From positions 120,404,001 to 120,468,000 of the forward strand of contig OX597815.1 in the NCBI GenBank assembly GCA_951406725.2: DNA of 64,000 nucleotides, read 5' to 3'. Shown here one piece after another: positions 1 through 58,150 of this stretch (positions within the stretch are counted from its first letter, which is position 1; every line of letters begins with the position of its first letter). The DNA comes from Octopus vulgaris. Lineage: Eukaryota. The notes under the pieces are model-generated. The model saw only the letters and a list, made by a program, of their open reading frames with translations, ran no database searches and was not told the DNA's origin. Position numbers and translations under genes: made by a program.

Positions 1-626
1 TTAGGGGTTAGCCATATTCAAATGGCAAATATACGTCACGATGTGTTGCCGCTACTGTTTATAACTCGCTCTGAGATTTATCATTGTTTAATAATAATAT
101 TTTTTATTATAAATTATCTTGACATTCTTTTTATATTACATAAAATATTCTTTACATTCTACTGTTGTTTTCTTACTATTTATTTACGAGTATTGTAAAT
201 TTTATAGGTAAAATATTTTTCTAGGGATGAAATACGATCTATCTATAACATTGCTACATTGGAAAATCATTGCTCTGCTTTACGAGTTTTCAATTACGAG
301 CGGTCTCCAGGAAGAAATTAATTCGTATACTGAGGCATTACTCTGTGTGTGGGTGTGTATGTGTGTATACATACGTACACACACACACACACACACACAC
401 ACACACATATATATATATATATATATATAAGAAGGTGAATGAATTATCCTAGTATGGATAATTCGGTTAACCGATACCTGGGTAGCAAATTCACGTCAGA
501 AAACACAGTTGAAGCTATATGCCAAGGGCAGGGATCCCGTGTTCTCGTGTGTAAATTTGTGTGTTTTTTTAACTATGAATAAATGAAAGAATGGAGTCGA
601 ACGACGATTTTAACAAAATTCCTTTA

Positions 627-709
627 CTCTCGACACATTTTTCGAAGGCTGCATATTCCTAATTCCGAAGGAATAGAGGGTGCATTATGCCGCCATCTCA
701 TCAGGAAAG
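627..709 (-). ncRNA. Inverted copy of the hammerhead with a stem III C>A substitution
   Basis: Reverse complement of 861-943; reads GAAAAATGTGTC instead of GAAACATGTGTC. Confidence 0.75.
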
Positions 710-860
710 ACAAGGAACTTATGTCAGCACCATGAAGAGCAAAAACTTTTAGATGACTGACCACATGATGTCCACAGTAATAATCATTATTACTGTGGAC
801 ATCATGTAGTCAGTCATCTAAAAGTTTTTGCTCTTCATGGTGCTGACATAAGTTCCTTGT

Positions 861-943
861 CTTTCCTGATGAGATGGCGGCATAATGCACCCTTTATTCC
901 TTCGGAATTAGGAATATGCAGCCTTCGAAACATGTGTCGAGAG
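861..943 (+). ncRNA. Type I hammerhead ribozyme, canonical core
   Basis: Stem I CTTTC/GAGAG (one G-U), CTGATGA at 866-872, long stem II (GA-GGC-GCATA / TATGC-GCC-TC), GAAA at 927-930, stem III AC-ATGT-GT, GUC cleavage triplet ending at 938. Confidence 0.85.
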
Positions 944-1388
944 TAAAGGAATTTTGTTAAAATCGTCGTTCGACTCCATTCTTTCATTTATATATATATA
1001 TATATATATATATATATATATATATATATATATATATATATATATATGTGTGTGTGTGTGTGTGTGTGTGTGTGTGTGTGTGTGTGTGTGTGTGTATATT
1101 TATATTTATATAACGGTATAACGGGCTTCTTCACAGTGTATGTGAGACAAGCACAGACAACGATACATACATACATACATACATACATACATACATACAT
1201 ACATACATACATACATACATACGTAGCGGGGTAAAGAGTGGCTAGAAGAGGAAACCAGGTGAGCAGATATGATGCAATTATCATCGTCATCGTCGTCGTC
1301 ATCATCATGATCATCATCTTCCTCATCATCATTATTGTTATTATTATTATTATTATTATTATTATTATTATTATTATTATTATTATTT

Positions 1389-54614: not shown

Positions 54615-54665
54615 AATGGAAGTCCATGACGTTTCGAGCCTACGCTTTTTTACAGAAAGGAAAAA
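54615..54665 (-). mobile_element. Decayed solo Penelope terminus with an HHR remnant
   Basis: Minus strand CTTT-CTGTAAA-AAGCGTAGGCTC-GAAA-CGTC. Confidence 0.6.
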
Positions 54666-55977
54666 GGACACAAAAAAGGGGGAAAGAGAAAAAGAACACA
54701 AAGAAAAAATAAAACGAATTAGAATTAATGGTTACTACATGTTGGACTGACCGGAAGGACGGAATTGGCTGGAGGCGTGGGTGGCAAGGCGAGACAACAG
54801 TGACCAAACAAAGGCATGGTGCTAAACAAGATATCTCAAAACTTTATAATTGTGAAATGACATTTCTGCTCAGATTGACATAATTATTCAATCCACCGAA
54901 AGCAATAGATTACTATAAAGGAGATGAATTTATGCCTACTCGAAATAAATAATCTCTTTGTGAAATCTCTTATTCAAACAATGAAGCACTGAAAAAACAG
55001 CAGCACTCAAGTTGCTTCAATCATACTAGTCTTCACCGTGTTAGATCTCTTAGTAAGAATTTAGGAAATGGAATTTCTCCTCTGGGTTCTGTCAGCCTCT
55101 TGTCGCAAATTGCAGGAATTTTGATAATTACATTTATTTGATCTTTGAAATTACAAGATGTTTTTTATACTACGCAAGATACATACATGCATACATACAT
55201 ACATACATACATACACATACATACATACATACATACATACATACATACATACATACATACATGCATGCATGCATGCATACATACATACATACATACATAC
55301 ATACATACATACATACATACATACATACATACATACATACATATTAGTTATTGGTATACACCTAGTAGTTTGCCGGGAAAACACGTTCACTAGCTCAGTG
55401 TTCGTTAGTTATCTAATTAATGAGAGAGACGGAAGATGGCAGATACGAGAATCTTTATTGATCAATCTTTATTGGTATTATATGTATGTGTGTGTGTGTG
55501 CATTTGCTTTTATGAGAAGTTATATATAAAAACAATTTAGCATAAAACTGAAGTATTACTGAGTATACTTTAGTATTAATTTTTACAAGAAAAATGTTGA
55601 CAGTAGCTTTTCTTTATTTACGAGAGTTATTGGTTGTGAACCTTTTGTATCATATTCTCAAGGTTTCTAAGTTATCCTGCATTGAGATTGTTGTTGTGGT
55701 AGTGTTTAACTTAGTTTATGGTAATTTTGTTGTATACATTACATTATACATTGATATAGTGTCTTTTATTGGGTATCTAATTCTGGTAAGGGTTATACTT
55801 GTTCAAGAATGTATTGCTTATGGAAGTTTTGTTGCATATATTTTGTATTACGCTAAGAAGTAGTGCAAGGTACCAGAATTTTCAAATCAAGTCAAATAAA
55901 ACAAACTACCCGAGTCGTTTGAGTATTTGTGCAAGTGGAGTCTGGACAGACTGGTTTGTACTTGCATCTAGTCGTAT

Positions 55978-56283
55978 AAGTTGTAATAATGAAATCAAAC
56001 CAAATAGTGGTAATTTCAAATTATATGATACAAATTATATTATGCATATTCTTCAGGTCTGCATAATAGATAATAGGAAATTCATCCATTACATTAGACC
56101 TTTCAGTTAAAACATTTCAAAATATATTGTTTTATTCACATATTATTTATAATTTTGAAATGTTTTAACCGAGGAAGATCTTACGTAATTGATGTATATC
56201 CTATTATATATGACACAGGCCCGAAACGTACGTGTTAAATGATTTCAAAGTATCAGTTTGGTTTGACTGCCTTGTTACAACTT
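55978..56283. repeat. Diverged palindrome (arms of about 145 bp) with decayed outward-facing hammerheads (about 56040-56111 -, 56164-56239 +)
   Basis: GTTAAAACATTTCAAAAT / ATTTTGAAATGTTTTAAC at the centre, AAGTTGTAA...TCAAACCAAA at the ends; plus strand TTTAA-CCGAGGA...GAAA-CGTACGTG-TTAAA. Confidence 0.7.
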
Positions 56284-57699
56284 GTGTGTGTGTGTGTGTG
56301 TGTGTGTGTATGTGTGTGTGTGCACTTACAGTATTGTAAGTATGGATATAAATATCATCAACAATAGCAATCCAAGCAAAAACCAGGCAGTTGTATTATC
56401 AGGTTACACAGCAAATATCACAAAATGCTAACATTAATCAATTCGCACTTAACGGTCTATCGGCTAATTGCAGCTAAATTGATTAATCGATTAGAAGATA
56501 ATAACGTCTTCACAAATTATGGCTGCCCTAGAAAAACAATAATTTCAAATCGCTTTCATTAGATAACGGATCTTCATTTAAAAAAAATTGTTTTGGAAAG
56601 AAACTGTTTCGATGAAAATTGTCATCATAGTCAGAACCGGTTTGATAGTGTGCCTGAGCACACATCAACCTTTCTCAACTAAAGGAGGAGTAAAGATAAG
56701 TGGGGAAATGTGATAACGAATTACAACTGATGTAAGCATTACTGGCTTCATCTGTCGAGCCAATGAGGGAGAATTTTCGTGGCCGCTCGATCTTCTAGAA
56801 ATAGCAGTCAAAGCCCCTTCGAATATCAATTATACCTCATTAAACAAGAGAAAACACATTAGATAATGTTGTCTTCAATAGAGTAAGTTTAAAAAAAGAC
56901 CGGATGGATGGTCGCGGCTAGAACGTCTTTAATCATAAGACTGTCCAGTTAGGACTCATATGGGAATCAACAACAGCAACAATCATAACAGTGACAATAG
57001 CAACAACAACGACAATAACGACTAGCTTCTTAATTTTGCAAGGCTTGAAGTATTTAGTTAGCCAAAACTACAACATCAGTTGTACCACTAATAAACGCTC
57101 TTAGAAATGTCATGAAAATCATACGCCCTCTATTCCTTCTCGAAAAATATAGAAGTTTTGAGTCTAGTCGAAAGAAACCCATGATATCGGGATTTTTGAA
57201 CATTTTTTACGATTCTTTTGAAGCTGAGTGAAACATCCTTTGTAATACAACATATAACAACATATTTACGATTAGCTACGACTCTGTGTGTATTGCATGT
57301 AATTTAGAATTGTTGCGGGAGCGTGGCTTCGTAACATGAGCTACGAATTCGCTAAATACTTTAGGTGCTTATGTAATCACAAGCAGATATAAATACCCTC
57401 TCGATTACCCTATCTTTGACTCAGTGGGACATCCTGGATGTGACATCAGGAGGGAAAGAGAGGTGCAGCAGTAGAACTCATTTACAACTGACTAGACTGG
57501 AGCAACGTGAAATAAAATACGTTGCTTCAGGACACAACGTGCGGCTCGATCCCTGAATTGAACCCATCACATTATGACATTTAACTAGGCCACGTCCCTT
57601 CATTTTAAAATATTAAAAAACCAGTAATCGGACCACTAAATTCTAATTTCAGTGAATATGTAAATACTTAATCTATATTTCAGAGATGAGGAGTTTATA

Positions 57700-58150
57700 C
57701 TGTTTACATTAGTCAAACTGTTTTCCTCATCTTGATTGTTGCTTTTCACTGCGTTTCGGTTGTTGTACGCTCCAGCCTTTTATCAGGTATCTTGTGATTC
57801 CCCTCAGTGCCTCAGAACCTCCAGGTCAAATATGGAATTATATTATTCAATCTGTACGGAGTCGACAAAGAACATCAATGGAGGTTTATAAACCTTAAGA
57901 ATTTACTCGGCCACTGCCTACGGGCGTAGTGTTGTGGAGAAAGGCGTTAGTTAATGCAATGCTGTTACCCAAAGGTCCTGAGTTCAATCTGAGGCAAGAC
58001 ATTTAGGTGAATCACAAGACACCTGAAGAAAGCTGGAGCATACAGCAGCCAAAACGTAGTGAAAACAATAAAGATGACATCAGTTCGACAAATGTAAAAG
58101 AAAAAAAAAACAATAAAGATGAGGACACCTGTCCGACAAATTTAAAAAGT
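57700..58150. repeat. Inverted repeat with decayed outward-facing hammerheads (57747-57790 -, 58019-58061 +) around a spacer of about 200 bp containing a tRNA-like B box
   Basis: GAATCACAAGA.ACCTGA..AA.GCTGGAGC.TACA.CA.CC.AAACG.AGTGAAAA in both orientations; spacer has CCTGAGTTCAATC. Confidence 0.72.

Follow-up and report, generated by a model that had tools for sequence, protein, structure and literature searches.

A 64,000-nucleotide stretch of the Octopus vulgaris genome (assembly positions 120404001-120468000; the whole stretch is called the window here) contains six sites at which repeats of hammerhead ribozyme-bearing families lie head to head as two inverted arms. The host genome is 2.8 Gb in size and rich in AT and microsatellites. 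The sites, and the repeat families they represent, are labeled A (579-991), B (52143-53455), C (55978-56283), D (57700-58150), E (13910-14103), and F (45309-45489). We conclude here that such pairs are an ordinary insertion footprint of Penelope-like elements (PLEs), real and non-random, and that they establish no new class of element.

Architecture of the six loci

Self-comparison of the window detected inverted arms at all six sites, with identities of 98% at A, ~70% at B, 73% at C, 77% at D, 70% at E, and 67% at F, and alignments of genomic relatives showed that the sense strand of the family faces outward at every one of the six loci. Thus, the geometry proposed in a preliminary description of the window, a minus-strand hammerhead on the left and a plus-strand hammerhead on the right with the arms continuing outward, holds for the arms, but the hammerheads are broken, mutated, or absent in most of them. 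The intervals first assigned were also too narrow: the left arms end at ~431 in A, ~55847 in C, and ~52918 in B (across a short interspersed nuclear element, SINE), locus D spans 57671-58160, and the minus arm of F extends to ~45014. A strict type I hammerhead descriptor matched four times in the window versus 0.13 times per shuffle (30 shuffles), and two of the four matches fell inside the loci, at 860-944 and in a misjoined call at 53250. The alignments of relatives revealed type I motifs at the level of the family for B, C, D, and E; for F the motifs were weaker. No hammerhead was among the Rfam matches listed for the window (150 of 189), and Rfam detected neither these hammerheads nor the promoter-like head of E and D described below.

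Family A, a young autonomous PLE

Locus A (431-991) is the pseudo-long terminal repeat (pLTR) of a young autonomous PLE of Hydra-like type. Its long arm (431..784, minus strand) is 98% identical to positions 3683-4040 of L033, a natural copy that serves as reference (L numbers denote genomic loci), carries a tail of ~150 nt (431-578, minus strand), and includes a hammerhead with one stem III change (~626-710, minus strand). The short arm (786..991, plus strand) is the same pLTR without the tail; it begins at a putative transcription start, ends at (TA)n, and holds the only fully intact hammerhead core in the window (860-944, plus strand; type I with a long stem II, predicted cut after 938). 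A 1-nt loop separates the arms.

Copies of family A run upstream into a frame encoding reverse transcriptase (RT) and a GIY-YIG nuclease. L221 has the full structure, consisting of an inverted pLTR, a pLTR with tail, an open frame of 804 amino acids, and a second pLTR with tail; the frame of L229 has 833 amino acids, and both frames contain the YRDD motif of RT and the IYQC..YIG motifs of the nuclease. Judged from L221 and a census of 68 loci, the family combines one open reading frame (ORF) for PLE-type RT and C-terminal GIY-YIG with partial-tandem pLTRs, a hammerhead, an optional tail, and an inverted partner, as is characteristic of endonuclease-bearing (EN+) PLEs. Atlas neighbors of the protein scored 0.96-0.98, and some of their clusters have GIY-YIG on 26-50% of members; Pfam gave no significant match and PDB no match for the A or E proteins. 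Features of the Hydra clade, noted by eye, are the DKT and RWK-like motifs, the lack of CCHH, and CxxC/CxH near E and N, and the flanks point to (TA)n targets. The CxCX5C linker expected before the nuclease is absent from L221, L222, and L229, and we therefore call the family Hydra-like rather than a member of that clade. A decayed PLE related to A, at 18181-20534 of the window (plus strand), has retained the CxCX5C linker and is likewise Hydra-like.

An exact 35-mer of family A had 81 matches in the genome, all of which were fetched and resolved into 68 loci. Among the matches, 13 adjacent pairs lay within 5 kb of each other; all 13 were divergent, with 13 different spacings. An inverted arm was present on the 5' side in 46 of the 68 loci (44 detected by BLAST, two by short local alignment), 22 copies were solo, one locus had a same-strand piece, and no true convergent pair occurred among the 68. 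Two flags of a downstream inverted arm were low-complexity matches of 30-37 nt to the N-rich part of the coding region and were not counted as convergent. The expectation that divergent pairs exceed convergent ones genome-wide is borne out in the families tested.

The outer ends of family A copies fall at two fixed places ~150 nt apart. Among the 46 pairs, 40 combine a long with a short end, 4 a long with an intermediate end, 1 two short ends, and 1 a short with an intermediate end; none has two long ends. Exactly one long end is therefore present in 44 of 46 pairs (binomial p 1.5e-11). All 46 breakpoint pairs are distinct at BLAST resolution, at which the junctions were called, two breakpoints having been corrected by hand before the mechanism tests. 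Arm length varies between ~40 nt and 2.6 kb; the ORF is reached in 8 of 46 pairs, a whole hammerhead is present in both arms of 16 of 46, and one arm begins downstream of the ribozyme cut site in 21 of 46. For family A, at the 68 loci examined, these numbers refute the non-coding ribozyme fold-backs mobilized as units that were first envisaged. Many pairs are indeed short and non-coding, three A pairs have the breakpoint 3682-3684 in common, and symmetric pairs keep two back-to-back start sites, such that occasional re-mobilization may occur. However, the three hotspot pairs differ at the junction, and partner offsets also vary in B, C, and D, so that movement of fold-backs as whole units is highly improbable as an explanation of the pairs. 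Unique junctions, as in ordinary 5'-inverted Penelope truncation, are what the preliminary description itself had named as speaking against its proposal.

It had further placed the junction near the cleaved RNA end. None of 114 family A 5' ends lies at the cut site (reference 3835-3837), and 4 lie at 3832-3840; a junction at the hammerhead cut site was rejected on this basis. A different position recurs: 13 of the 37 arms that reach reference position 3684 end at 3682-3684, 28 nt downstream of a sequence that we take to be a TATA-like box and within what we likewise assume to be an initiator (Inr)-like site. We read these stops as probable run-off at the RNA 5' end, and the pair in the window as a putative double run-off.

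Several observations concern family A itself. Reference positions 3642-3683 of L033, just upstream of the junction position, carry motifs resembling a cAMP response element (CRE), a TATA box, and an Inr at promoter spacing, and copies beginning at 3683 are without the upstream CRE-like and TATA-like motifs. Window positions 431-480, the far end of the tail, contain both a hairpin and a 12-bp palindrome; lying immediately within the long start site, these may act as a signal for protein binding. L032 (G000:C12:45127477-45131096) is a 3.6-kb head-to-head pair with arms of 1.8 kb that are 99.5% identical and both contain the nuclease region.

The relation between the two arms of a pair bears on snap-back priming, one of the causes first suggested and also proposed for rotifer PLEs, in which the second arm is synthesized on a cDNA, or an antisense template, that has folded back on itself. 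Self-priming has been argued from junction palindromes (PMC3846280), and some A junctions lie in natural palindromes (L177 and L179). In 21 of 44 pairs, though, the 5' end of the tailed arm falls more than 15 nt short of that of the short-ended arm, and in 12 of 44 the tailed arm is tail only and has no sequence in common with its partner. In such pairs neither arm can be a copy of the other, which excludes snap-back as the sole mechanism; the 1-nt loop at the window junction also argues against it. As a general explanation we regard snap-back as unlikely. Arms resemble each other more within a locus than between loci, with median distances of 0.028 versus 0.057 (n = 30 with enough overlap, of 33).

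Family E, a Poseidon-type pLTR with a tRNA-Arg-like head

In locus E the repeat corresponds to a pLTR from a Poseidon-type PLE, one whose head resembles tRNA-Arg. The long arm (13910..14009, minus strand; 80% identical to L330) has a tail of ~35 nt and no hammerhead core, and corresponds to the 3' part of the pLTR; the end of a Penelope/Poseidon-type ORF lies upstream in other copies. The short arm (14010..14103, plus strand) begins within hammerhead stem II; no whole hammerhead was found in either E arm, nor in either flagged arm of F. A target duplication of 11 bp surrounds the whole insert (13899-13909 and 14104-14114).

The associated protein has RT and GIY-YIG with CCHH, lacks a CX2-5CxxC linker, and is followed by a hammerhead pLTR, as is typical of Penelope/Poseidon elements. 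L311 contains the RT core and L324 the thumb and nuclease, followed by head, hammerhead, and tail; no full-length copy was found among 20 loci. In 16 of 20 loci selected for the ORF, an A/B-box head separates the stop codon from the hammerhead and hence is part of the pLTR, and many E copies begin at its start. Compared with 30 tRNA loci representing 8 anticodon types, it matches a genomic tRNA-Arg(TCG) at 39 of 50 positions (score 50 versus a maximum of 28 over 200 shuffles). D heads did not score above shuffles, and neither ARAGORN nor Rfam called a tRNA.

An exact degenerate 35-mer of the intact hammerhead had 1705 matches genome-wide. The first 30 (29 loci, all on contig C1) included 16 head-to-head loci, 15 of which were long plus short, and 1 of the 29 had a downstream inverted copy. 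Both ends could be called in 24 E pairs, drawn from 68 E loci, and 10 of these had flank duplications of at least 8 nt, versus 12 of 552 mismatched flank pairs; the target duplications of E pairs are roughly 10 bp.

Two further explanations are confronted by these duplications. The pairs might result from two separate insertions, the second homing in reverse orientation into the pLTR of the first copy, considering that PLEs tend to land beside earlier copies (a passage in PMC6765202) and that, in vitro, the enzyme of the anole PLE cleaves the pLTR region of its own element (experiments in PMC11167929). However, a single target duplication encloses the whole pair, the arms share variants, direct and convergent neighbors are rare, and independent events would not yield the 44 of 46 pairs with one long end, which makes this route very doubtful. 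Assembly fold-back artefacts or terminal inverted repeats of DNA transposons could come to mind given A arms that are 98% identical around a 1-nt center, an unrelated perfect palindrome of 330 nt in L006, and repeats in the window resembling miniature inverted-repeat transposable elements (MITEs). The arms differ in sequence and length, though, with unequal ends fixed for each family and with target duplications, and they are parts of RT/GIY-YIG elements, so that we give such an origin almost no credence.

Families B, D, and F, retrozyme-like monomers, and family C

Families B, D, and F are direct repeats of ~330, ~300, and ~345 nt, respectively, and the 3' part of a unit passes without interruption into the unit that follows. 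Tandem periods were 297-397 nt in B (6 of 30 loci), 275-304 nt in D (2 of 30), and 339-349 nt in F (4 of 20 rows, 3 loci). All three thus consist of tandem monomers in the 150-450-nt range with a type I hammerhead, as expected of non-LTR retrozymes, although the F hammerhead is weak, a relaxed descriptor having matched it in 3 of 19 other loci. The preliminary description had set the fold-backs apart from direct-repeat retrozymes, a distinction that falls away since B, D, and F are themselves direct-repeat monomers. Its suggestion of non-autonomous elements is apt for these three, which look non-autonomous, but not for A and E, which are pLTRs of autonomous PLEs.

At locus B, the minus arm (52143..52918, minus strand) has a net length of ~365 nt, more than one ~330-nt monomer, is interrupted by a later SINE (~52374-52783), and contains a hammerhead at ~52306-52347 (minus strand); the plus arm (53145..53462, plus strand), whose 5' limit is uncertain, has its hammerhead at ~53250-53296. 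Both hammerheads carry C3U. A degenerate 35-mer for B had one copy, and young B copies were not found with it. At locus F, the minus arm (45014..45378, minus strand) exceeds one monomer of 340-350 nt and holds a decayed hammerhead at ~45163-45203, and the plus arm (45375..45490, plus strand) is without one; the junction is a 4-nt palindromic overlap. Long and short ends were not callable in families B and F, and target duplications are not visible for the window copies of A, B, C, and F.

Locus D comprises a long-ended arm (57671..57827, minus strand) and a short-ended arm (57828..58160, plus strand) just over one ~304-nt monomer in length, in the order linker, A/B-box head, hammerhead with G12A, and 3' part. 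The hammerhead cores of both arms are broken, and a 10-bp target duplication surrounds the insert (57661-57670 and 58161-58170). D is homologous to the E pLTR (alignment score ~150 versus a shuffled maximum of 101-112), contrary to the view that the families share no sequence outside the catalytic boxes; a TATA-like box, head, hammerhead, 3' part, and tail are common to both. A linker of ~55 nt from tail to head in D (L097 and L082) lines up with the last codons of the E ORF, which hints at an internal deletion.

Locus C has a long arm (55847..56128, minus strand) with a tail of ~130 nt and a short arm (56142..56283, plus strand) ending at (TG)n, both with broken hammerhead cores. Among 30 tailed C copies, 14 had an upstream inverted partner, short-ended in all 14, and none a downstream one; the parent ORF was not found in this set.

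Upstream-inverted outnumbered downstream-inverted partners in each of these families: 10 versus 2 in B, 9 versus 3 in C, and 14 versus 0 in D (30 each), and 7 versus 2 in F and 9 versus 2 in E (20 each). These raw counts indicate direction only, as the copy in the window and two loci present in duplicate are among them, along with a few artefacts from microsatellites or internal palindromes. A second D sample gave 12 versus 1 (of 30). D pairs were long plus short in 8 of 9 cases in the first sample. Searches by tblastn with 3-6 local PLE proteins revealed no sense ORF beside 30 B, 60 D, and 20 F loci, although old ORFs may be missed. From their sequence organization, B, D, and F are likely retrozyme-like, non-autonomous monomers copied in trans, and the PLE footprint on them suggests that Penelope enzymes did the copying. 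Mobilization of retrozymes by PLEs has been proposed and is unproven; the B, D, and F pairs may be taken as footprint evidence for it.

A model for the head-to-head pairs

With a Penelope RT as the likely cause, as first surmised, we consider it probable that every pair arose in one insertion event and has a junction of its own, the PLE RT-endonuclease priming on both cut strands and joining the copies back to back. This reading is supported by the head-to-head orientation, the unique junctions, the combination of one long and one short end, the target duplications around whole pairs (the D and E copies in the window and 10 of 24 E pairs), and arms closer within than between loci. The enzyme, elsewhere predicted to be a dimer, would nick the two target strands ~10 bp apart. 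Of the two target 3' ends, one would then start cDNA synthesis where the RNA tail terminates and the other where it begins, each cDNA would halt at random or at the RNA 5' end, and the cDNA ends would be joined head-to-head via microhomology or short inserts. The hammerhead would be a passenger near the start sites, uncut in these templates.

Several results weigh against this model. The 5' ends of 11 of 44 A pairs lie within 15 nt of each other, where 3.6 are expected (p 2e-4), and 8 of 41 pairs still match when the start-site hotspot is left out (p 0.005); snap-back would give such pairs too. The second D sample comprised 4 long plus short and 3 short plus short pairs (7 pairs), 14 of 24 E pairs have no duplication of at least 8 nt, and no ORF could be linked to B, C, D, or F. 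The one-long-one-short rule is left unexplained, since a study of the anole enzyme saw no strand difference in start-site use. Finally, a Neptune-type family had upstream-inverted partners in 1 of 15 cases and downstream-inverted partners in 3; in this small sample it is without orientation bias, and the footprint is thus not universal in this genome.

We are evenly divided on a more far-reaching version, by which Penelope enzymes moved B, D, and F, family D descends, by internal deletion, from a Poseidon-type PLE lineage whose pLTR had captured a tRNA-Arg-derived RNA polymerase III (Pol III) head, solo pLTRs spread as Penelope-driven SINEs, and the long-short rule reflects an asymmetric dimer and two RNA sites.

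Three features make the pairs worth pursuing: retrozyme-like monomers carry the footprint too, one pLTR has a tRNA-like head, and the one-long-one-short rule has been put into counts. The head-to-head, long plus short, and target-duplicated footprint can be scored in any genome and thus bears on which enzyme moves animal retrozymes. For the completion of PLE integration, the counts predict that both strands are primed, at two sites of an uncleaved RNA, and a tRNA-like head on a PLE pLTR would offer a way for a SINE to arise from a PLE.

Other hammerhead families and repeats

The Neptune-type family is represented in the window by a very young PLE (7420-13217, plus strand) with an unbroken frame of 1116 codons at 9217-12567, which matches RVT_1 (E 2.7e-07) and, weakly, GIY-YIG. 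This copy is a direct repeat: a 5'-truncated direct partial tandem precedes it, the repeats are 99.7-100% identical, and its hammerhead has the variant first box CUGUUGA. A family-agnostic hammerhead scan gave 124 matches in 1.53 Mb versus none in shuffled sequence, mostly at targeted loci; the 10 other matches (4 upstream-inverted, 2 downstream-inverted) are too few to judge. The flanks of L044, L047, L117, L181, L189, L191, L219, L319, and L327 hold at least five further families with a type I hammerhead, in several of which stem II bears a long insert.

Inverted repeats of other kinds were also observed. Terminal inverted repeats of 35 bp around 480 bp at 51511-52060 delimit what is presumably a mariner-like miniature element, and perfect 33-bp terminal inverted repeats bound a MITE-like element at 59383-59822, part of whose interior recurs at 30970-31178. 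Two weak inverted repeats without a hammerhead call lie at 23422-23576 and 48159-48218. Fragments of a long terminal repeat (LTR) retrotransposon, with LTR pieces 93% identical, and of several long interspersed nuclear elements are located at 33518-36343, 39875-42000, 27531-28893, and 1440-2230.

Comparison with known systems

The architecture and the self-priming idea are already in print, so that the pairs do not represent an undescribed system. PLEs with an inverted 5'-truncated copy and a tail at one end only are described in the structural account of PMC8557442, and passages of PMC3846280 report head-to-head as the most frequent one, target duplications around inverted pLTRs, and a proposal of self-priming. 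Our literature search, beyond which lay most subscription papers and the repeat databases, returned no report of a tRNA-headed pLTR or of head-to-head retrozyme insertions. Passages of PMC4209133, PMC11722881, and PMC9977147 contributed no decisive information.

With EN+ PLEs, as outlined in these two sources, the pairs share the head-to-head inverted pLTR, the one-end tail, a pLTR-borne hammerhead, target duplications of 8-10 bp, microsatellites as targets, a TATA/Inr-like motif in the pLTR, and an N-rich insert between RT and EN. They differ in the tails, which are ~150 nt in A and ~130-170 nt in C versus the 30-40 nt described there, and in that counts are given here for the one-long-one-short rule (44 of 46 A pairs). 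Family A resembles the Hydra clade, as characterized in PMC8557442, in RW, DKT, a C-terminal GIY-YIG without CCHH, CxxC plus CxH, and (TA)n targets, but has an N-rich stretch where the CxCX5C linker is expected, and is placed by motifs.

The closest experimental parallel is the green anole Poseidon element PAc. In the in vitro work of PMC11167929, this PLE cut and extended both strands, with two RNA start sites bounding the tail, no strand difference in their use, and no need for hammerhead cleavage. The two fixed start sites bounding the tail, the involvement of both strands, and an uncleaved RNA template are, on the model above, common to that system and to our pairs, and E carries Penelope/Poseidon-type motifs. 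The E pLTR differs in opening with a tRNA-Arg-like A/B-box head; inverted pairs are not treated in the main text of PMC11167929.

PLEs were named as likely candidates for retrozyme mobilization in passages of PMC7229834 and PMC7761336, where the repeats are said to carry no motif that would indicate a partner, and the vertebrate retrozymes in the relevant part of bioRxiv 10.64898/2026.07.22.740005 were tied to pLTRs by phylogeny and distribution. Like the metazoan non-LTR retrozymes of these three sources, B, D, and F consist of AT-rich tandem monomers of 275-400 nt with a type I hammerhead, no ORF was found, and their arms exceed one unit. Unlike them, they are old, mostly dispersed, and dimers at most in the loci examined, and carry the PLE head-to-head footprint, which is unreported in the retrozyme passages. 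Finally, the schistosome SINE-like hammerhead repeats transcribed by Pol III, in the account of PMC6765202, correspond to E and D in that a hammerhead comes after a Pol III-type promoter and the copies are tandem or dispersed. The difference is that the E head immediately adjoins the stop codon that ends the ORF of an autonomous PLE.

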